Below the pieces are notes generated by a model. The model had not been told where the DNA came from. It searched no databases and saw nothing but the letters and a program-made list of their open reading frames with translations. This document shows positions 27,766-51,407 of a DNA stretch of 64,000 bases, piece after piece. This DNA is from Octopus vulgaris (lineage: Eukaryota). Position numbers and translations under genes: made by a program. The stretch covers positions 111,290,001-111,354,000 of the forward strand of contig OX597820.1 in NCBI GenBank assembly GCA_951406725.2. The letters are read 5' to 3'. Position 1 is the first letter of the stretch. The number at the start of each line of letters is the position of its first letter.

Positions 27766-29105
27766 ATAGGGAAAGGTAGGGCAAGTTGAGCTTGTTTTTA
27801 AGTTAGGTACGTTAGGACTGAAATTACTGATGAGCTTGCAGAAATGAGTATCTTACCTTCAAATTTAATCCTTGAGCTACATTTGTAGCTAGTTCTAACT
27901 TTCTGTTCTCACACTGAAAGTTACTGTGACCTTTGAAAAGATGAATGCCAAATGGTTTAACTTTCCCCACCTTTGGAGTAAGTTGATCCAACCTCTGGGG
28001 TAAGTTGTGCCATACAAGGATAAGGTGATCAATGCCCCAAATAAAGATAACTAAGGTACAAAACCACTATTCTATCTGGAAAATATATTTAATGTTGTAA
28101 CTACAACACTGAACGAAATGGTTACCTTGTGCTCATAGTTATAATAGTCAGTTAAAAACAAATAGAGTCATAGGAAAATCAAGATAGTAACAGTGGTAAG
28201 AAAAGTCAACTCAATTCAGCTTCCACAGTTTCAAGTCACAATTTATCAAAAAGTGTCCCAAATACACCCAGAAATGTCAACAATCAGATTATGGTAACTA
28301 AGGCACAATATCCTGCTCATCAATACCAGCTTCATCATTTGGATAGGAAAACAGATGTGAGAAATGATTTCATTTAAGCTGTCACACTGACAAGTCATAG
28401 TTTGACCCAGCTGACCAGAACAACGGGCAGACATGCTAACAGTTTTAGGCTATGGCAGTTTATGCACGACGTCTTCCATTTCAAAACTTGCTCCATCCTT
28501 TGGATTTGGAACAAACACTGGGTTGTCAGCTTCAACTTGCCCAGAAAATTTTTACAGAAAGACATTCGAACTGAAATTCCTCTCCATTGAGTACATCAGC
28601 CTAATGTACTACACAAATCGTGCTTTGCTAGCACATTTGACAACCGCAAAGTTACCTACAAGGATATCCATGTCACTATCCATATCTGATTTGTCATTAT
28701 ACTCAACTTCTGATTCATCATTTTCCACATTGGAACTAGGGGTTTTGGAGCTTGGGGACATGCCTTTTCCCCTTTAGATTTGAAGAAACACCTCTTTGGC
28801 TTCTTGGCAGATGCATTCCGTTTGCCATTTTCAGATAGGACTGCAAGCTCCTGGCGTTCTGTGGTGTCAGTTACAATCTTTGTGCTGGTCAATAATTGAA
28901 TGTACTCTCCCTTTCTATCAATACACTTAGTCCTGCCGGACTTTATCGCAACCATCAGACAACACACGTTATTCTTGGGGATGAGGAACAGTATCAGAAT
29001 GGCATTTTTCAGATTTGGCTCATCGTGAATATATCGGGGCAAATAAGTTGGACTATAGCTCAACTTGTCCCGTAAGGTCTGGCTCACCTTACCCCAGTCT
29101 GAACT
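27766..29105 (-). mobile_element. Probable non-autonomous DNA transposon (pogo-like) with subterminal repeats
   Basis: Repeated ggg(c/t)aagttg motifs at 27780-28010, inverted at 29058-29095; decayed coding-like acidic/basic segment on the minus strand. Confidence 0.4.
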
Positions 29106-29708
29106 TCATGAGGTGTCTACTCATACACACATAAGCTATGCATCTATTGTTTGAAAGGATATGGCGAGCGTGTGTATCCCATACCTGGGCTGACAACTGC
29201 CATCTGATATCTATATCATATCTATGTTGCATATGGAATAAAATATTCTTGACCGTTTCACACATCTTTTACTTTTATGGCTAAATTTGATCAAAACAGT
29301 TTTATTCAAATTATAAGTTTAAATTTATGTTGGCATTTTTGTAAAATTATAATACAATTTAGCTCTGAAATAATCTGAAAAACAAAGAAAAATCATTTAA
29401 CAAATATATAACAAATATCTAACACACATTGAAAAGTTGTAATTTTACCACGTTGGCGGGATACCTACCTACCAATTGTCTTATTTCTCAATGTTTTTGC
29501 TATCTTTACTCATCAGATGTTTTAGACAATTTAGTATATATGTGTTAGAGATTATATGATTAATACCGTAAAATAGGATATTTAATTGTGGGGGTGTATG
29601 CAAGGGGTACGGGTGGGGGTCACATAACCCTAATTTTCATAATCTTATTTAAAATACTATTTGAAATCCTGTGCATACTGTAGAATTAAGGTTGTATTTC
29701 GACTCCAC

Positions 29709-29797
<89 letters not shown>

Positions 29798-29964
29798 GTT
29801 TGTATACTGTCAATCTAACAAGAACGTGACAGTAGGGGGTACACCACCGTTGTATAGCCCTAGGAGGCATCGAACGCCTCCTGACAGCTTCGACACATTT
29901 TTTCCCTGTGTCCTTATATACATATACGAAGGGGAGACAAACACCCCCAAACGCCAGAACTGCA

Positions 29965-30010
29965 TCTAGGGACACCGTGTTTCAGGATCATTGTCCGTCA
30001 TCGGCCTAGA
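29965..30010 (-). ncRNA. Minimal type I hammerhead ribozyme (inverted copy)
   Basis: tctagg-CCGATGA-cgga-caatga-tcct-GAAA-cacggtg-TC-cctaga. Confidence 0.7.
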
Positions 30011-30352
30011 GTAGCAGACACCGGTCGGCTGGTGATATTTGTCTGGACTTCGTATCTGTATATATGTAAACTCAGTGAAGTCTATTCACTGATTATCTAT
30101 CGCCCCACCACCGTACAGGTCTCTACGAGAGATTTAGAAATTCAATATTTCTTATTTTGATAATCAGTGAATAGACTTCACTGAGCTTACATATATACAG
30201 ATACGAAGTCCAGACAAATATCACCAGCCGACCTTTTTTTTTTTGGAGTCGTTATTCTGGTGTGTTGGTTTCGAGTGCGTCATTGTGAAGAGGTTGTGAG
30301 TTCGAGTTCGTTGCTGGAGGACGTGGTGAATTTTATTTGGAGATTTTTGAAA

Positions 30353-31426
30353 ATGCAAGACCAGACGTATGCGAGAGCAGCAGGCAGAGGCGTGGTTGCG
30401 AGTGAACTAGAAATGGAAGAAGTGGTAGTCGAGAAGAAGACTTTAGAAAAATATTTCGACAGTTTGAAGAGGGAGGGTGACTGCGTGAGAATCACACCGT
30501 CCAAAGAAGAAGAAAATAACGCGGAGAAACGTATGATAACATACAGGACATGGTGTGTGGCGTCAAGAAAAATAGAAGTAGCAGAGACGGAAGAAATAGA
30601 GAAATGCCTGAAAGGAATTGAGGGTGAACCTACCTTTTTCAACAGAGGAAGGAAATATGCCACAGTGGTGGTACACTTTAAAAATGAAAATGAAGCAAGA
30701 AAGAATGCGACAAAAATTCTGAAATCCGAAAGTTGGACTTTATTACCTAGCTACTGCGGAAAGAGGGCAGTCAGAATAAGAATTGGTAGGATTTCGCCCG
30801 AACTTAACATGGAGAGGATATTAGCGGCAGTAGTTTTCAACTGCAAGGAAAGTGTGGAGGTGGTGAAGGTGGAAAAGTCAACAGAAGTTAAGTGGTGGGG
30901 ATATGCGGTACAGGTTCTGGCACATATAACGGTGCCAGACCTATACAACATCCCGGAGGAGTTGGTCTTCCCTGATGAGACACGGCTTAGAGTCGTGGTA
31001 GAGGGAAGACCTCCAGTTTGTTATAATTGCAAATTAAGAGGCCACATGAAGGATGTGTGCCCGCTGGAGAAAACGATAACACCGGAGGCTGTAACAAAGA
31101 AGTGGAAAGATACGTGTGTGGAGGAGGGAGAAGTGCAGGAGGAAATGAAAGCAGTGGAGGCGCAAACGGAGGAGCAGCTAATTGAGGATGTGGAAGAAGA
31201 ACGTGCAAGTGCAGAGGATGGAAGAACAGAAGATAGGAAGAGAACAAGGGTGGAATCACCACCGAAAGTTCTAAAAAAGAAAAAAAGAAAAAGCAAGATA
31301 ACAGAAGAAAAAGAAGAGAGAACGTGCAAAGAAAAGGACGAACAGACAAAGACAGAGGTAAACCTAGAATGGAGAAAAAAAGTGAGAGAACAGTTGGATG
31401 CTTGTAAAAAGGGAAAAGACCTGTAG
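30353..31426 (+). CDS. LINE ORF1-like protein with CCHC zinc knuckle (about 357 aa from the first ATG)
   Basis: Uninterrupted ORF MQDQTYARAA...; CYNCKLRGHMKDVC; collinear similarity with ORF1 at 46211-47050; acidic then basic tail. Confidence 0.85.
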   Translation: MQDQTYARAAGRGVVASELEMEEVVVEKKTLEKYFDSLKREGDCVRITPSKEEENNAEKRMITYRTWCVASRKIEVAETEEIEKCLKGIEGEPTFFNRGRKYATVVVHFKNENEARKNATKILKSESWTLLPSYCGKRAVRIRIGRISPELNMERILAAVVFNCKESVEVVKVEKSTEVKWWGYAVQVLAHITVPDLYNIPEELVFPDETRLRVVVEGRPPVCYNCKLRGHMKDVCPLEKTITPEAVTKKWKDTCVEEGEVQEEMKAVEAQTEEQLIEDVEEERASAEDGRTEDRKRTRVESPPKVLKKKKRKSKITEEKEERTCKEKDEQTKTEVNLEWRKKVREQLDACKKGKDL

Positions 31427-31713
31427 GAAAATACCTGAAAGTATTCGTGTTGTACGTGAAAGACACAGAAGTGGAAAAAAGACTTGCAGATAGGAAAGGA
31501 TTGATTAGGGTTAAATTACACCCAAAACTGCATGATGACGATGTGAAAGGGGTAGTTGTAGATAAAGGAACATTTATTAAATTGAAAAGTATGTTTGATC
31601 AGGTTTATTTAACGTATTGTGTATGTTATGACAATTTGCCAAATGTGATAGACCAGATGGAATTAACAAAGTACATTACGGACGAACGTCCAACAGAACT
31701 GGAATTTATGTAA
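31408..31713 (+). CDS. -1 frame continuation of ORF1 (C-terminal domain)
   Basis: Frame is open from 31408 (KGKRPVGKYLKVFVLYVKD...) to TAA at 31713 and overlaps the end of the main ORF. Confidence 0.55.
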   Translation, partial: KGKRPVGKYLKVFVLYVKDTEVEKRLADRKGLIRVKLHPKLHDDDVKGVVVDKGTFIKLKSMFDQVYLTYCVCYDNLPNVIDQMELTKYITDERPTELEFM

Positions 31714-31998
31714 TTGTAAAATTGTAACATTGTAAATTGTAAAATGTAAAATTGTATTTTGAACTGGAATATATGTAATTGTAAAATTGTAAAATGTAAA
31801 ATTGTATTTTAAACGGAACTGCGAGTTGGGGGGTTCGTAAGCCGTTCCATCTAACTCATTATACATAATTCATCTTTATTTCATATTTTATTTTTTACTT
31901 TATGTACCCCATGTCCCGTCTTGTAATGTCCCCTCTGCATTCGGGCCATCGTGCCCATAATAAAGATATAATATCACCAGCCGACCGGTGTCTGCTAC

Positions 31999-32044
31999 TC
32001 TAGGCCGATGAAGGACAATGATCCTGAAACACGGTGTCCCTAGA
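31999..32044 (+). ncRNA. Minimal type I hammerhead ribozyme
   Basis: tctagg-CCGATGA-agga-caatga-tcct-GAAA-cacggtg-TC-cctaga: 6-bp stem I, 4-bp stem II, GUC site, U4C core variant. Confidence 0.75.
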
Positions 32045-32274
32045 TGCAGTTCTGGCGGTTGGGGGTGTTTGTCTCCCCTTCGTATATGTATATAAGGACA
32101 CAGGGAAAAAATGTGTCGAAGCTGTCAGGAGGCGTTCGATACCTCCTAGGGCTATACAACGGTGGTGTACCCCCTACTGTCACGTTCTTGTTAGATTGAC
32201 AGTATACAACCATTCTATCGCCCCACCACCGTACAGGTCTCCACGAGAGATTTAGAAATTCAATATTTCTTTAT

Positions 32275-32445
32275 GAAAATAAACAAAAGACGAAGGCAGG
32301 TGGAGTACAAACAATTAATTGTATTAGTATGGCGCTCAGGAATATAAATAAAACAAATCTTTTACGTTTCGAGCCTACGCTCTTCGACAGAAAGATACAC
32401 AGAAAAGAAACACAGAAAGAAACAAGGAGAGAAAAAAAATGCGTA
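32275..32445 (-). mobile_element. Short dispersed PLE-type repeat with hammerhead-like motif (family also at 42795, 59538, 59790, 63850)
   Basis: cttt-CTGTCGA-a-gagc-gtag-gctc-GAAA-cg-TA-aaag at 32359-32394 (-). Confidence 0.65.
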
Positions 32446-32464
32446 TTTATATATATATATATAT

Positions 32465-32890
32465 GAAAAGCCAGGGAACTCCGTCAGATCACAAATATGT
32501 AGGACGTACCTCTTTAAGAATACCATATGCACCAATGATAACTGCATGGTATGTAGGATTAGCCCTGGCATTAACTGTAGAACTCGAAATGTAGTTTACA
32601 GCATAAGATGCATAGAAGGTACTTGTAAAGACATGGACATGACATACATAGGGGAGACATCTGGGAGCATTGCAGAACGACTAAATGAACATCTAAGACA
32701 ATATGACGACAGAAAACAGTCCTCCATACTCTACTAACATGCCAAAGACCACCATGGAAGTAACTTAGGTCAACTTGATATCTGCATCTTATCCAGGCAC
32801 CCAAAAGACCCAACACTCAGACAAATACGGGAGTACGTCCTTAAAAATGAAACCTCCCCAATACTAAATAGGAAATATACATAGTAGATA
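32465..32890 (+). mobile_element. Penelope-like GIY-YIG endonuclease fragment
   Basis: CRTRNVVYSIRC..C...YIGETSGSIAERLNEH...LRQIRE...PILN. Confidence 0.85.
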
Positions 32891-33457
32891 CCATACCTCC
32901 ATTCCCACAGTTTACATAGGTAGAGTAGAATAGTTAGTGGACCGTAAGGTAGATAAATGTATGTATGTGTGAGATTGTGTATGCACTTTTTTTTATGTAA
33001 GCATATAGATATGAAAATAAGCACATCAACATACAGACAGATACGTACATAGGTTACAAGAACAGACAAGCACACATACGCAAATGGAGACTGAAACACA
33101 TGACCATATATATATACACACTTTACTCCACACAATGACACATATGGAGACACGGATCCACACATATAGAGATGCACATCCATACATACAAACATGGTAC
33201 ATAGCTGCATAACACACACACATACAGGCATGCACACACAAGGAGACAGAGGTGCAAACATATACAAACACATGCTCACACACACATACATAGAAAATAC
33301 ACAAGCACAGTCATGCAAGCACATAAATACACAGGATACATACATTATACACATACATACATATATACATATGCATACACATACATATATACATACATAC
33401 ACATGCAAACACATACGTACATACGTACATGCATGCATGTATAGGCACACACACACG

Positions 33458-33502
<45 letters not shown>

Positions 33503-33664
33503 ACCCACAGACATGCACACAAACAAAAGGGAACGCAGTGTAAATAACGGACAGAGTCAAGATTATTGAAAAGGTTGCAAGACGCAACGAAATTTTTAGG
33601 AAAATAAAAATAAGAAAAAAAGTGAAAATGTTACCGGTGAGTGTACTTACTTGTACTTGTGGTG

Positions 33665-34070
33665 ACATTCACCCTGGGCGGGTTGAGTCGGTTCTTCTAG
33701 CACCCTCGAGTCATCTCGAACCATGGCAGCCCATGCACGACGGCCCTACGCCAGTTCACTGGAGATAGCGAGCCAGTCACGGTTCCATTGGCGCAGGCCG
33801 ACCACCTGCGGACTCGTGAGCACGAAGAGGTCCTCCTTGATCGTCGTAACCTAGGTCTTCAGCTGCCCGCCCGCGCGTTTCCGCCAGTTGGGAAGTGGAG
33901 TTGGGAGAAGGACATTACGGCTCAGTTCAACCACCGGACGCCTACATGCATAGCCAAACCACCGCAAGCGCCGTTGAAGAAGGACGGATGGAAGGGGCCG
34001 CAGGGATAGGCGAAGTCGGAGATTGACGGTGGGAACACGATCCACCCGACGGTGGATCGACCGGTGAGTG
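33665..34070 (-). mobile_element. RTE-clade LINE 3' fragment
   Basis: LLQRRLRWFGYACRRP..WRKRAGGQLKT*VTTIKEDL. Confidence 0.75.
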
Positions 34071-34089
34071 TGTTACATTATAAGGCACT

Positions 34090-34797
34090 AAAAGAAAACG
34101 ACTCTCCCCAGACACAACAGAATATGCTTCAACACACAAACTAATATAAAGAATCTTGCAAACCAAATCCAAAAACGAAATATAATAAGCTTTAGCCAAG
34201 CTAGCAAGACATTGAGAAACACCGTGTTCTGCTGTCTGAAAATCAAGGTAGCTACCCGACAGCTCCACTTCATTAAAACATGCATCTCCTCCAAGCTATA
34301 CACAAAATCTATCAATTCAGCTGCCATGCGGTTAGGACTCACAGAATATCAAGAAAGAAAACTAAACATACGATGTTACAAAACATCAAAAAGAAAATAT
34401 ACACAGAAATCAACCAATACCAAAAACGAAAGAGAGTCCTGCTGCATGAACTAAAAAACACCACTACTCCACACGAAAGAGAGACATTCATGACAAACAT
34501 CCGACAAGAATACCACCGAGTTAAACATACCTGTAACAAACACTTCAACAATAAACTCAAGTGGATGAAACAGCAACAACAACAATCCCAGCATGGTAAG
34601 AATCAATACAGATACCCAAACAACATCGATGGGATTATCATGTCAGAATGTAAACTACCAGAGGATTTCGACGCCAGGACATCGGAAAACAATACCACCA
34701 TCAACAACAACAACAAATACACCTCTAGAATATATGGTGCAGTACAGCTAGATACAGATGAAATGCATGCATTAGAGTTACCACCAAAATTCGCTAT
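34090..34797 (+). mobile_element. Probable Penelope-like N-terminal region
   Basis: A/C-rich ORFs 34212-34810 ending IYGAVQLDTDEMHALELPPKFA, resembling the pre-RT L..G.KF motif. Confidence 0.5.
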
Positions 34798-34806
34798 ATA
34801 TATATA

Positions 34807-35966
34807 CTAGCTAAAGGTGACCCGCTCTACGCGCGGGTGTGGTTGTTACTTTCTGTTGCTTCCTTTCAGCACGTAAAAAGCACCATCCGAACGTGGCGGA
34901 TTGCAGCGCCGCCTTGACAGGCTTCTGTGCTGGTGACACGTAAAAAGCACCAACCGATCGTGGCCGCTGCCAGCCCCCCTGGCACCTGTGCCGGCGGCAC
35001 GAAAAAGCACCCACTACGCTCACAGAGTGGTTGGCGTTAGGAAGGGCATCCACCTGTAGAAACACTGCCAGATCAGACTGGAGTCTGGTGCAGCCTCCTG
35101 GCTTCCCAGACCCCGGTCAAACTGTCCAACCCGTGCTAGCACGGAAAACGGACGTTAAACGATGATGATGATGATGATTCTCCCTCTTTGTTTCTCTCTC
35201 CTTTCTCTCTCACTTTCCCACTCTCTTACTCTTCCTTTCTCTCGGACTCTCCCTCGCTTTCTCTTTCTATCTTTATCTATCTCTCTCCCATTTATAAACA
35301 ACAAAAGATCTTGAGTAAGTTGAGAAATAAAATATTTAGAAAGATCAATCATAAATATCAGGCAGTAATAACGGAAAGGTCTGCTTCAAGGCAGACAGCA
35401 AAACACTAACATTTAAAAGAGACAGACGAACTTGCGAGCTGAATAAAAATAATAAAATATTGACGGGATAGAATTTGAGGATAGTAGAGTCACCATGGCT
35501 GGCATTTCTTAACGACGGACAGCAACGTATTGACAGTTTAACGGCTGGCGTAAAATTTTGAACTTGATGTAAAAGAAAATCCCTAAACACCAAGTTTTGA
35601 ATTGATTCTTTCTCACGACAGTAGACTCACGATGGCAAGCATTCAAAACTTCTTCATCATGGACGGCAACACATTGACGTTTAAAAGGCTGGCGTAAATT
35701 TTTTAGCTTGATGTAACAGAGAATTGCTAAACACCCGCTCCTTTAAATTTTAATCCCCTTCAAGTCCCATTTAGACCCCTTTTCACATTTTGGTTAATAT
35801 AACCCGATTTCATTCGGGTCTACTGGGGCCAGATTTTATAAGATGAGGAATTTTGTCCTAGAGGTCACGCCTTTCATTTGAGGAAAAAATAGTTGTCATG
35901 CAAACTTGCCAGCACTTTTAACATAGGTGTGCATATTTTCAGCTCAACCGACCACATAATGCACAC

Positions 35967-36048
<82 letters not shown>

Positions 36049-36777
36049 AGTCTCTCTCATACGTGAGCGTTGACGCTGAATTCGACTGGTAAGCAGGTAA
36101 CCTTGTCTTTGTCGAAATAGTTGTGAGCTGCTGGAGTTATTTCTCTGACAGGTAATAGGAATTTCCATATCCTCCGAGGAAACGAACTGTTGACCCAGAC
36201 AATTAGAATTAATTTTAATAAAAGCATCAATTTAAGAAAAAATAATAAAGTAGTAAAAAATGAAAATTTAGCACGAAAAATTCGCAGGGTTCTAAATAAA
36301 TGTTAAAATGTAATAGATACGAAAAACCTATGTTATCACCAGAACACGAACGCTGGTTGGTGCGTTCTGTTTGTATTTGGTCGATCGGCGCGTTGACAGG
36401 TAGACAATAGAATGCGATTGCGATGGCGATGGAATATTTGTTTCTCACTATGAATGCAGACAGATACATAAGTGAAAGTTATGGGAAGGTAAGAAATAGA
36501 GAGAGTGAAAATGTGCTGGGAAGAGAGGAAATAGCGAGAGTGAGTTGAGGAAGACAGATACATTAAATAACGAGAATGGACTTGTCAAAGTTAAAGGGAA
36601 ATGGAGGAAATAGCGTGAGTGAGGAAGATGGCCCCTAGCAACCACACCTTTTCAGATAGGGATTTCTAAGGTAGCCCACGGGCATCGTCACCTCATTTTA
36701 CATGTCCCTGTAAATTTTGGAGCGAATCGGACGGGATGTAGTGGCATTGAAAGCGAGCCAAGCGGTAAAAACGCATT

Positions 36778-45991: not shown

Positions 45992-46061
<70 letters not shown>

Positions 46062-46210
46062 GGTCGTGTTATTCCGCAGTGAAAGATTGTTTTTGTGCTG
46101 AAAAGTTTGAAAATTTGCTGTTTTGGTCGTCGAGGCCACTTCTTTTCTGCTGTTGCAGCAGAGTTTTGCTGTTCTTTCCCCCTTGTTTCAAGGGGGAAGC
46201 GACGAAAAAC

Positions 46211-47395
46211 ATGAATTTGCCACCAATTTCTTCCGAGTCCGAGGAAAACGTTGAAAATTTGTTTGAAGGCATGAAGGCGAAAATATGGGAGGAGGAAGGT
46301 GAAAGTAAAGAGGCGTCTCACGCGCGCGTTACAAAAGCAGACGACAAGATGTCTAGCGAAGCTACTACACAACAGGAAAAGTCAAAAATAAATTTTGCGA
46401 GTGCAGCAACTCGCCCCTGTGATAATATAGTTATAAACAAGGAAGAATTAAAGAAGTACCAAAGTTTATTAAAAAAAGAAGGTGATAATGTGAAGTTGCT
46501 CCCTCCCAGTGAATTAATTTACGCGACGGAGAGAAAGACGGTAATATACAAAACATATAATATGAAAAATAGGAAAATTGACTTCGTGCCGAGGGAAGCC
46601 ATAGAAAAATGTTTGAGGCCGATATAGCAACAAACTAGTTATATAACGAGGGTTAGTCGCTTCGGCACTGTAGAGGTGCGTTTCCCTAGCGAAGAAAAAG
46701 CTAGGGAACATTCAACAAGAACGTTGAAGTCGGAACATGTAGTTCTCCTACCATTTTATTTAGGAAAGAGAACATCGAAAATAACGGTCACAGATATTCC
46801 TCCCGAAATAGATGTGGCCTTTGTCATAGCAGCGATTCTTTTAGGCAAAGAGGAAGAAATTGCCATTCTTCAGTCTAAGAGATGTCGCCACATGAACTGG
46901 TATGGACAATATTTAGAGCTTGTGATCCAAGCAAACCCCTCGGACTTGGAAAAATTGCCCAGTTCCCTCACCATTGGAGATAATACCAGCATCATGGTAA
47001 TAGTCGAGGGGAGAAAGCCCAGGTGTTATAAATGTGGCGAGAAAGGAAGCACGACGCCGAAAACAACAACTACACCGCTAGAAATAGCAGCCACGTCGCG
47101 CACCCCAATTGCCGAAGTTCAGCCGACAACGGGAGAAAACAACAACAATAACGACGACGACAACAACAACAACAACATCCAGGAGTGGGTCACCATAGAA
47201 CCTTCAAAAAGAAGACGGAAACGGAAAAACCCACCCTCTTCGGATACACAGGACTATGCTCCGAGATAGACAAGCACACCCACACCCACAAATACAGTCG
47301 CAAACACACACATAAGCCAAAAAACACACACACGCCTACCACAAGCACGCACACACCTACAAACACCCACGCTTCAAAAAGCACACACACACCCA

Positions 47396-47434
<39 letters not shown>

Positions 47435-47770
47435 CAACAATCGCCTAACATAAAAAAAAAGAAACACCTTCACGGCGATAAATAAAAATAATAAACTAAG
47501 AGAAAATATTATTTTAATGAAATCGGCGAAAAAAATATCGCAACAGATGTAAATAATACTATTTCTGAAAATGTCGAATTTTATACTATAGATAACTTTG
47601 ACTATTTTGAACTAAAAAAATATTTTGCGGAGGACGTCGGCCCGTTACAGATGAACTTTTCGAGCCATCTGGACAGGCAATTCGTGAAAAAAATGACCTC
47701 GCAAAACACAACACTCACAGACAGAAAAGAGAAGGGTGAAACTACACCCTCTCTTCCGTTAAAACAGTAA
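46211..47770 (+). pseudogene. LINE ORF1, disrupted
   Basis: In-frame stop at 46625-46627, zinc knuckle truncated after CYKCGEKG, frameshifts in a CA-rich low-complexity region. Confidence 0.8.
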
Positions 47771-47799
47771 GTTTTAAACTTTCGACTAATTTTTCACAT

Positions 47800-50700
47800 T
47801 CTCGTTTAAACTCGGGTGTATAAATATTCGCGGCCTGGGGTCGTATTGGAAGCAAGGCCACCTCCTTAACGACCTTAGGTCGCATCGTTTGGATGTAGTG
47901 GTAATTACCGAATCCAGACTGAGTGGGCTGCAGGCTTTTTCGCCCCTTCTAAACGGCTACGAGAAATACGTTTCTCCCTGTCGCCTGGAGGGGGCGGAGG
48001 AGTGGCAGTGCTGGTCAGGAAAAACCTGGATTTAGAGATTAGAACTGTCTTTATAGATCCGGAAGGCAGGATGGTCGTTTTGGATGTAACGCACAGCAAT
48101 GGTAAAGTGTTCAGGCTGGTCGCTGTCTATGCTCCCTGCGAAGGAAAAGCCGGGCAGAAAGATTACTTCAAAAGCCTAGAGAATTTTCTTGGCACGTCGA
48201 ACACGTTAGTATTGCTAGGTGACTTCAACATAATTTGCGATGCACGCGTAGATTATGTTGGCTCGAGAAAGAATAGGAGGGGATTACCTCACCTCAACGA
48301 TCTGCTAAGTCGTTTCGAATTGGCAGATCGATTCAGACTGGACAACCCAGACACTCCAGCGTGGACCTGGGCAAGAAACGACGGGTCGTCCAGATCTTAC
48401 ATAGATAGAATCATAACTAGAAGGAAAGATAAGAAAATACTTAGCTGTCCACAACACCATATCGTCAGCTACAGCGATCACAAATTAGTGACCTGTACGC
48501 TCGACATAGATAGCATGTGTAGACGAGGTACCGGTTACTGGAAGCTAAACAAGTCACTATCGGGCTGTGAAGCCTACAGGAATCGGATTAAACAATTAGT
48601 AATGAGGGCGTTAACCGGATCCATTATCAACAACAAATGGTGGTACGCCCTGAAAAGAGCCATCAAATTTGAGTCAATTAGGTTTAGCTAGTGCTAGAAA
48701 CAAAGTAGAAAAGGAACTAGTTAAGGCAATAGATGAGGCAATGAGGTCAGGCAGTGCATCGAAAGTGTTAGCGGCGAGGTTGGCACTCGACCAACATCTT
48801 AAAGCTAAACATGAAGGGTGCATTGTCAGGGCTAAGATCCGTGCAATGAGACAGGAAGGGATCAACGCAGCCGGATGGGCCCGGGTTGTAGAGGGCCAGC
48901 GTGGCAACAACTCAACCATTCGATCTTTGACGGGCCCAAATGGTCGATTAGTAAACGAACCCGAGGAGATGTGCAAGGTGTTTCACGATCATTTCGCCCA
49001 GCTATTCGTGAGGAGCGGCGGACTGGAGCGTGGGGAGAAGCTCGCAGACTTCCTAGCCGGTTCGCCGTGTCTGTCGAGGCCGGACGCGGAATCTTGTGAG
49101 GCGCCGATCACAGCCAAAGAAGTCGAGGATGTGTTGGCAGACTGCGGCAGGGACAAATCTCCGGGACTCGATGGTCTGCCTTACGAACTCTATAGTAGCA
49201 TGCCAGACTTGTTTGGGCACCTACTTGCATGCGTGTACACCAACTGGCAGCAGAACGGGAGAATTCCTAAGTCTGTGAGCAGAGGAATGGTAGCGCTGTT
49301 AAGAAAGGACCCAAACAATTGATAATTTTCGGCCCATCACTCTGCTTAACGCAGAGTTGAAGATTTTGGTCAAGGTCTTAGCAAAAAGGTTGGCGCGGGT
49401 CGTGGGTGAACTTGTTGGCCAGACGCAAACTTGCGCCATCCCTGGAAGGACCATCCACGACAATCACCACTTTCTACGCTATGCCTTAGAAAGGGTAAAT
49501 AGGATTCCTGGCAAGGGTGGGGCTATGGTCCACTTGGACCAATCGAAAGCGTTCGATAGGGTGGACCATCAGTATCTGGCGGCGGTCCTCACGGCGGCTG
49601 GCTTCGGCCCGACCTTCCGCGGATGGATCAACGCTTTATACAGCAACATCGAATCGGTAGTTCGGGTGAATGGTTTCTTTTCGGAGCCGTTCAGAATTGA
49701 ACGTTCGGTACGTCAAGGGTGTCCTCTCTCCCCGCTTCTCTATGTTTTGGCCCTCGAGCCGTTGCTGAGGAGGTTGGAAACTGTGAGAGGCACTCCGCAA
49801 GATCTAGGGTGCGGAAAGTCAGCTTCGGCGTATGCGGACGACATCACCGTCATCGTATCCCGAGTCGAGCACCTACAGTGGGTGGGTGAGGCCTTAAGGG
49901 ACTACGAAGCGGTGGCAGGAGCAAAAGTCAACCGGGATAAATCGGTCGGCTTGCAACTCGGCACCTGGAGGGGCAAGTCGATGTCTTCCGACAGCGTCGT
50001 AGGACGTTGGACGGAAGGACCGGTGAAAATGCTTGGAATCTGGTTAGGTCCAGATCTCCAGATAGAGAAGAACTGGAACGAGGTGGCGAGAAAGGTGGCG
50101 CTCCTAAATCAGTCATGGTCTGAGCGGAAGCTGTCCTTGAAAGGGAGGGCGGAAGCTGCAGAGATGTTTATCGCCTCTGTAATCACTTACCGCCTGACCG
50201 TCGTTCCTTGCCCCGATTCATGGCTGAACAAACTGGAACGCATGCTCTTTCGCTTTTTGTGAAGGGGCAGCAGACCTCTTGTAAGGCGCACTATTTGCTG
50301 CCAAAAGTCGCTGAAGGGTTGGTTAGGGATGCCGTGGCTAAAAATGCGCAGACATGCGCTCAGGCTTAGGCATCTCTGGCTTTACCTGGACGGTGAGCAG
50401 GTGTGGTCTCCGTTCGTCAAGCTGTTATTTCCACAATTCACATCGTTTACCAAACTGAACCCATGGATCAAGTGTAGACCGAGGTTGGGCGTGTGGCATG
50501 TAGAGTGCCATCAGGCACTCATGCTTCTCTCCCAGTCGGGCAACGCCGGTGGCGGGGGTACTACCTCGTTCTTCTATAGTGGGTTAGTAGAGTTTAAGTG
50601 TGACGACGTCCTGGGAGAAACCCTGGGCTTCGACGAAAATCAACTGGCCAGCCTGTTCCAAAGAACATTCGGTCCGGGGCCTATGGATAATTACCAAAAG

Positions 50701-51180
50701 TCCCTGGCCTGGCAATGTTACAGAGGAGCTTTACCGGTTCGAGATAAGCTCTTTAGACATGGGTGTTCACCTTCGCCGGTTTGTGCAAGATGTGAGAGGG
50801 ACAGTGAAACTATCCTGCACGCGATTGTGCAATGCCCCAAGGTGACTGAACTCTGGGCTTATGCCGAACACCTGCTGTCGCATTCGAGAAGAGTACAACT
50901 GTCGAGCGAATCTGTAATTAAGATAGTTCCGCCGACCTCCCTGAATAGGGAGGAGCGAGCCTGTTTTCTCTCGGTAGTTGCTATGGCGAAAGAAGTAGTA
51001 TGGACGAGAGTAAAAGGAATTGCAACAGGCATGTTCATCTCCAGTCTCGAGCTAATCGACTTTTTCGTTTTCCACATGAAACGGAAAATAAGGCTGGAGA
51101 AGAAATGCCTGTCGCAAAGTGTGTTTCGTAAAAGATGGAAGTCTATAGCAAGTATGTTGCGAGTGAAAGAACCTGTTTAA
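47800..51180 (+). pseudogene. LINE ORF2 (APE endonuclease, RT, Cys domain), disrupted
   Basis: CINIRGL, GVAVL, VYAP, GDFN, YIDRI, SDH, YWKLN; KSPGLDGL, NFRPITLLN, LDQSKAFDRV, VRQGCPLSP, YADD; CARC..E.ILH...C. Frameshifts near 47910-47940, 48690 and 49320; stop at 50260. Confidence 0.93.
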
Positions 51181-51407
51181 TCAAGAATGTGAAAAAGGAG
51201 AAAGCAAAGTCTTCAGTGTGAGTATGTGGTTTGTGGGGTCAACCGCGTCCTCCGCTTCATTTTTTTGTTATTCACTCATTCTCATTTAATTGTATATATT
51301 TTAATTGTTTGTTTATTCATACGTTTCGTCTCATTCGATACCCTGACCCCAACGTTTGTTTTGTCCCCTCTTTTTCTCAACCTTATGGTGAATAAAGAAA
51401 TACTCAC

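Follow-up and report, generated by a model that had tools for sequence, protein, structure and literature searches.

How can a LINE-derived unit that encodes ORF1 but neither an endonuclease (EN) nor a reverse transcriptase (RT) be mobile, and whose enzyme would it use? This question is raised by a 1736-bp element in the window, the whole 64,000-nucleotide stretch of Octopus vulgaris DNA that was analysed. Our best explanation, to which we give a probability of roughly 0.8, is that the unit, itself frameshifted, belongs to a multicopy family of LINE-derived elements with ORF1 only, that this family occupies one fixed position immediately before the hammerhead motif in a Penelope-type repeat, and that it likely moves by means of the endonuclease and reverse transcriptase of LINE-P, an autonomous Tx1-type LINE family with insertions at the homologous site.

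The unit lies at 30234..31969 on the plus strand and belongs to subfamily A1 of the family; copies on many contigs have the same ends, and there is no EN or RT inside. The initial annotation had described an ORF1-only unit of 1.74 kb within a perfect 17-bp direct repeat, and both points held. The 17-mer occurs on the plus strand at 30217..30233 and 31970..31986 (chance mean 0.01) as the 5' and 3' copies of a target-site duplication (TSD). A 5' UTR with a T run at its start (30234..30352, plus strand) is followed by ORF1 (30353..31426, plus strand), which in this copy encodes 357 aa with an RNA-binding-type core and one CCHC knuckle (aa 223-236). ORF1 had been taken as intact. However, the window copy is frameshifted in the A-run at 31414-31417 and stops at 357 aa, and a second frame runs on past the frameshift to 31713. 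The full family ORF has 443-459 aa and is read through the frameshift point in 12 of the 30 fetched copies; its C-terminal domain of about 100 aa (31408..31713, plus strand) is out of frame in the window copy. The AATAAA signal that had been reported is present (31959-31964), after a GGGC/GCCC hairpin (31943-31956) in the tail, and the true 3' UTR (31714..31969, plus strand) measures ~256 nt.

The CCHC knuckle was confirmed: the Pfam zf-CCHC match is below the cut-off in the window copy (E 0.043), and eight of nine aligned members match, with a best E of 0.0017. In language-model features, the ORF1 core resembles CCHC and ZCCHC3-type RNA-binding clusters (0.90-0.93), which is a lead. Modelled with AlphaFold from its sequence without an alignment, the full protein gave no usable structure (pLDDT 35.7). 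For the C-terminal domain, a beta-alpha-beta-beta-alpha-beta fold is predicted confidently (pLDDT 88, pTM 0.81). A Foldseek search with this model found only weak ferredoxin-like folds and nothing at E<=0.001, and sequence searches of the PDB and the Atlas with the domain returned no usable match. Profile comparisons revealed no homology with the C-terminal ORF1 regions of LINE-P and of a further ORF1-only family, B (0.13% and 0.7%). By eye, the domain looks similar in pattern to these two regions, and for this reason we do not claim it as unique. That it might be a second RNA-binding module is a guess.

A search of its own 2.8-Gb genome with the unit revealed at least 63 matches, at least 46 of which span at least 1370 of the 1736 nt, itself included, both counts being lower bounds (best 39 of 252 candidates scored). 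Matches other than the unit itself are 67-97% identical. The unit is a multicopy element with fixed ends on many contigs, as had been anticipated, and its DNA is also present in sequencing runs of four organisms. The only named protein homologue of ORF1 is an uncharacterised Octopus bimaculoides protein, which contains the core and the C-terminal domain; 364 further, unnamed relatives were found at E<=0.001. With the O. bimaculoides protein as the query, the genome gave at least 206 matches (best 135 of 24485 candidates scored). No endonuclease was found downstream of the A-like ORF1 in any of the 30 top loci (41-79% core identity), nor in longer stretches at 16 of them, and copies that continue into an ORF2, which would have marked the unit as a one-off deletion, were looked for and found at none of the 30. 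At L163 and L164, RT pieces come after ORF1; these two loci were considered as autonomous parents and rejected, as they are 5'-truncated LINEs without EN that adjoin an ORF1-only copy.

In the ORF1 tree, 34 family rows group with the O. bimaculoides protein in a single clade (SH-aLRT 99), which is far from every autonomous LINE sampled; this tree and the element DNA tree described below are both quick trees. Values of dN/dS were computed by the Nei-Gojobori method from 24 natural ORFs, in pairs that are not independent. For the ORF1 core they are 0.37 among the six youngest and 0.09-0.19 in every other group comparison; for the C-terminal domain they are 0.17-0.48, apart from one young pair at 1.96. 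Between family ORFs, dS reaches ~2. ORF1 has been kept under purifying selection over these distances, in agreement with the long-lived lineage that the initial annotation proposed, and the fixed ends and TSDs enclose the ORF2-less unit across copies, in agreement with retrotransposition in that form. The family is an old ORF1-only LINE-derived lineage and no one-off deletion. It is of the same kind as HAL1, HeT-A and Ag-Sponge, with an ORF1p homologue lacking EN/RT, multiple copies, fixed ends and a selected ORF1. It is not HAL1 proper, a mammalian L1 derivative that is poly(A)-tailed and dispersed; the ORF1 relatives are octopus Tx1-type LINEs, and the element ends in AATAAAGATAT at a fixed target.

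A third copy of the 17-mer is found on the minus strand at 30023-30039 because the flank of the unit is an inverted repeat, in which 29800-30039 corresponds to 31970-32209 and 30023-30097 to 30159-30233, both at 99%. The 17-mer is therefore a fixed target inside a repeat and not an arbitrary TSD. The unit occupies one arm of this host repeat and the other is empty. The empty, inverted arm (29800..30097, minus strand) has its unoccupied target at 30023-30039, and the filled arm consists of a part upstream (30159..30233, plus strand) and a part downstream of the insertion (31970..32271, plus strand). A 58-nt 'tail' of the host at 30096..30153 (plus strand) is repeated at 32214-32271. Overall, the host is a non-coding monomer of ~365 nt in tandem and inverted copies. 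Its exact empty targets number at least 47 in the genome, and it is far commoner than the element, with a depth in sequence-run contigs tens of times higher, a ratio resembling that in DNA.

The host contains a minimal type I hammerhead motif at 32000..32043 (plus strand), with its core at 32005-32011 and predicted cleavage after 32038. It is the sole match to the hammerhead descriptor in the 64-kb window (0 of 6000 shuffles matched), and alignment showed that the core is conserved between host subfamilies. An Rfam scan of 28000-36500 detected no hammerhead at E<=1, only chance microRNA-hairpin matches below the gathering score. The strict descriptor matches 7 of 30 LINE-P flanks, 9 of 30 family flanks and none of 30 deep-relative flanks; other ribozyme-repeat assignments were made by BLAST to the host, by core alignment or by reading by eye. 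The minimal type I hammerhead, the tandem or inverted monomer and the tail together make up the architecture of Penelope pLTRs and non-LTR retrozymes, the monomers of which are ~150-400 nt in size. No RT or GIY-YIG (Penelope) ORF is linked to the host in 23 empty-site loci, so that a Penelope origin rests on this architecture, and we classify the host as a repeat of Penelope-pLTR/retrozyme type with a putative ribozyme. Read by eye, one degraded stretch of the window, 32500-32880, resembles a GIY-YIG motif and another, 34280-34810, the beginning of a Penelope ORF, the latter with no Pfam support. The host tail adjoins the end of another very abundant repeat at 32270-32410 in the window and at L047:6290-6450.

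Different TSDs had been expected in different copies of the family. Instead, all 19 sites of the closest subfamily share one position in the ribozyme repeat: every one of the 23 rows with 86-100% identity, which represent 19 distinct sites, meets the repeat there, 22 of them by BLAST and L018 in another host subfamily. The junction pattern gave 14 matches and its reversed control none. About 11 of 30 deeper relatives also adjoin a ribozyme repeat (9 by BLAST, 2 by eye). The junction ATC is located 25-32 nt upstream of the hammerhead core, and the perfect target duplication ranges from 7 to 19 nt between copies. The TSDs at L008, L016 and L018 match the local target variants, in L018 perfectly over 19 nt. 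A C at one distal position was observed in 11 of 12 5' junctions compared with 10 of 47 empty sites (Fisher p 1e-5), and in 4 of 13 3' junctions; the distal part of the 5' TSD copy is probably carried by the element. Target specificity, which the initial annotation missed, is the more interesting property of the family.

The same flanks in all close copies could mean that the element inserted only once or a few times in the ribozyme repeat and was then amplified by the Penelope machinery as a passenger, and the excess of the host over the element, with its 47 exact empty sites, would fit such a history. For SINEU-3, too, Kojima asked whether hitchhiking was involved (PMC4494074, available part). 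However, across 12 loci host identity does not correlate with element identity (Mantel r 0.12, p 0.26), and the filled arm in the window shares 98.6% identity with the empty arm of the same repeat and 99.1% with an empty host at another place, as opposed to at most 96.7% with any filled host. Near-identical elements reside in host subfamilies that are ~80% identical to each other, and their TSDs match the local sequence; tandem partners come from different subfamilies (88% v 96%); and an autonomous LINE, LINE-P, uses the same site. The passenger explanation is already largely refuted and is very improbable, and the element inserted independently after host integration. Its enzyme had been sought 16 kb away in the window, in the LINE family represented at 46059..51401 (plus strand). 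The ORF1 homology to this LINE was confirmed, at 33% over 137 aa (E 1e-29) and 35% over 85 aa (E 9e-14), and no autonomous ORF1 sampled is closer. The short end motifs said to be common to the two are present as well, and the family is young, with copies 95-98% alike. Pfam recognizes Exo_endo_phos, RVT_1 and zf-RVT domains in the window LINE, but this copy is itself broken, with a stop at ORF1 codon 139, a truncated ORF1 knuckle and ORF2 in pieces. Moreover, 25 of 25 3' junctions of its family are CT-repeat or CT-rich and none of the 25 contacts a ribozyme repeat, and the endonuclease mainly sets target choice (PMC4494074, available part). Because the family targets (CT)n, we consider it a very improbable helper, and we regard the copy in the window, a broken Tx1-type LINE in (CT)n, as a distant ORF1 relative.

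LINE-P represents a different EN-RT family, 57-72% identical to the window LINE in EN/RT. Among its 29 correctly oriented 3' junctions (29 of 30, L093 being left out for its orientation; best 40 of 2797 candidates scored), 22 run straight into ribozyme repeats, 11 in host subfamily b and 11 in other hammerhead-bearing subfamilies; four are at the 5' end of U2, one is in a tandem LINE and two are in other DNA. The U2 identity was confirmed in both junctions tested. In L054, one arm of a host carries LINE-P at the homologous ribozyme site, and its other arm carries two ORF1-only copies. At three loci, LINE-P2 and subfamily A3 occur in alternation and have an identical 3' junction and TSD, and in L045-L047 A1 copies run directly into LINE-P 5' ends. 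The youngest LINE-P copies are 99.1-99.8% alike. The tails of the element, LINE-P and others consist of TGTCC, a weak hairpin and AATAAA, with folds of -5 to -9 kcal/mol; the likeness between the element and LINE-P tails is short, and a 10-nt block is common to the element tail and the window LINE. The shared target and the interleaving suggest, indirectly, that the element is trans-mobilised by LINE-P ORF2p.

LINE-P ORF1 is only 25-28% identical to the element ORF1, below the 33-35% of the window LINE, and the helper therefore differs from the parent. An autonomous parent of the family was not found among the LINEs sampled. The fetched LINE-P copies include none with an unbroken full ORF2, the longest stop-free stretch being 1134 aa. 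The helper and parent group has the features of the Tx1 clade (APE endonuclease and RT in ORF2, a CCHC ORF1 and a sequence-specific target), and we apply the Tx1 label to LINE-P and the window LINE on the basis of domain layout and targets. Another candidate for the helper is an unsampled autonomous Tx1 subfamily, possibly extinct or else the true parent with an A-type ORF1, which would target the host subfamily of the window ('a') and of which LINE-P would be a relative. None of 18 matches showed a LINE-P 3' junction in subfamily 'a', and the searches scored the best 40 of 2797 and the best 135 of 24485 candidates, both of which speak for this possibility. However, none of 30 loci has an EN after its A-type ORF1, the subfamily 'a' site does contain LINE-P 5' ends (only two, both of degraded copies in one array), and LINE-P targets share the ATC...GACCGGTG signature. 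We regard an unsampled helper as unlikely and prefer LINE-P. Copies of LINE-P were also observed at the very 5' end of U2 snRNA genes (L088:2627-2820, L092:2626-2819, also L086 and L094); they are 99% identical to the copies in ribozyme repeats, as one young family with two target types.

With LINE-P as the helper, the element RNA would be packaged by its own ORF1p, and LINE-P ORF2p would recognise the 3' tail of the element (TGTCC...hairpin-TAATAAAGAT), nick the target at ATC and prime reverse transcription. At the second nick, a few target-like bases at the 5' end of the RNA would likely anneal. The target regenerated in this way could give rise to head-to-tail arrays, and the multicopy host repeat may offer the element a safe landing site. 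More speculatively, the host hammerhead, which has the same orientation and lies just 3' of the element, might trim read-through RNA ~70 nt past the element end.

Subfamily A2 comprises seven rows at 75-84% identity, none of which (0/7) touches the ribozyme repeat. It matches A1 up to the last ~35 nt and then has a different tail. This tail is also found in two further ORF1-only families, which lie in arrays with A2, as well as in an abundant short repeat and in one other autonomous LINE. In the DNA tree, rooted on deeper relatives with the A1-type tail, A2 nests inside A1, and the monophyly of A1 without A2 was rejected (p-AU 2.7e-7, from a quick tree that recombination between copies could bias). 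One subfamily thus appears to have swapped its last ~35 nt and changed its target, suggesting that the 3' end picks the helper and thereby the target. It is possible, at somewhat less than even odds in our judgement, that an old octopus radiation of ORF1-only Tx1 derivatives forms the top tier of a series of nested parasites (Penelope, ribozyme repeat, site-specific Tx1 and half-LINE), whose members would have kept their own ORF1, changed helpers, and picked helper and target by swapping only the last ~35 nt, as A2 may have done when it acquired the tail of a different LINE/SINE group and shifted to the sites used by that group.

Head-to-tail arrays at L049, L051, L056-L057 and L061 contain at least three more ORF1-only families (B, C and D) mixed with A2. 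The units of B, C and D are 1.7-2 kb in size with ORFs of 454-472 aa, and one array ends in an autonomous LINE. The outer flanks of A2/B arrays (L049:1050-1320, L057 and the 3' flank of L050) translate to ORF1-like motifs (KTIVYKVYN..., MEESTFEKCL...), and therefore these arrays seem to lie within the ORF1 of a further Tx1-type element. A short, abundant repeat that is SINE-like (L048, oriented 4019 and 4203; L053; L163) has the same tail as A2, B, C and the LINE at L052, which points to this Tx1-type LINE as its partner. At L052:5200-9330 and L068:235-1500, ORF1-only copies adjoin other, inverted Tx1-type elements with truncated ends.

The family bears on the open question of why some non-autonomous LINEs retain ORF1. 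The usual idea is that ORF1p multimerises with helper proteins (PMC5786205, available part); the ORF1 of the likely helper is only ~27% identical, which strains this idea and makes it testable. The family also provides a natural tail-swap experiment on how the 3' end selects ORF2p and thereby the target, and it extends the link between site specificity and repeated ORF2 loss from Drosophila to a Tx1-type lineage. LINE-P is a compact, very young, site-specific candidate helper family at ribozyme repeats and the U2 5' end. In the full-text literature searched, a scope outside which most subscription papers fall, we found no Tx1-derived ORF1-only family and none in a mollusc, no Tx1 element targeting a Penelope hammerhead, and no Tx1-derived ribozyme-site-specific ORF1-only LINE. 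The repeats of Octopus vulgaris annotated in 2026 include 80 families assigned to L1-Tx1, with no detail of this kind in the available part, and PMC9115989 does not mention Tx1. Novelty was judged against papers, and prior cataloguing of the family in Repbase or Dfam is possible. ORF1-only LINEs are a known kind, of which the Tx1-derived, ribozyme-site-specific family is a real new variant in the searched literature.

According to the available parts of the sources, non-autonomous LINEs that encode ORF1 only have been described for L1 (HAL1), Jockey (HeT-A) and CR1 (Ag-Sponge) (PMC5786205, PMC5753468, PMC3627910), and ORF1-only lineages are widespread at Drosophila telomeres (PMC13534243). Like mammalian HAL1, as described there, the element is non-autonomous, encodes ORF1p only, has long kept its ORF1 and presumably borrows ORF2p in trans (PMC5753468, PMC5786205, PMC3627910). 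Unlike HAL1, it is Tx1-type derived, resides in a mollusc and lacks a poly(A) tail, and it has a strict target inside another repeat, tandem arrays and no close autonomous parent found. With HeT-A and the telomeric Jockey elements (PMC13534243) and with Ag-Sponge (PMC5786205), again from the parts available, it shares ORF1-only lineages in head-to-tail arrays at a specialised site, autonomous partners, and ORF1-only lineages that give rise to further ORF1-only families. It differs from them in belonging to another LINE clade and in its target, a dispersed ribozyme repeat with a proposed sequence-specific nick and TSD instead of a chromosome end. The host resembles non-LTR retrozymes and Penelope pLTRs, as far as the accessible text of these papers describes them, in its short non-coding monomer, minimal hammerhead, tandem and inverted copies and terminal 'tail' (bioRxiv 10.64898/2026.07.22.740005, PMC8557442, PMC11167929). 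In contrast to these, its tail is 58 nt long instead of 30-40, no linked RT/GIY-YIG ORF was found, and it serves as a LINE target.

The closest parallels in targeting are Tx1 elements that use other transposons, such as Tx1L in Tx1D and SINEU with Tx1-Mar in Mariner-N4; other target-specific Tx1 elements include Keno in U2 snRNA and Kibi in (TC)n, and the window LINE, in (CT)n, behaves like Kibi (PMC4494074, available part). The octopus system shares with these a Tx1-type endonuclease aimed at another transposon and tandem insertions that sandwich a TSD, and, as for SINEU with Tx1-Mar, a non-autonomous passenger was identified through the shared target (PMC4494074, same part). Unlike in the target-specific Tx1 systems, the non-autonomous partner is protein-coding (ORF1-only), and the target is a hammerhead-bearing Penelope-type repeat, with LINE-P also present at the very 5' end of U2 genes.
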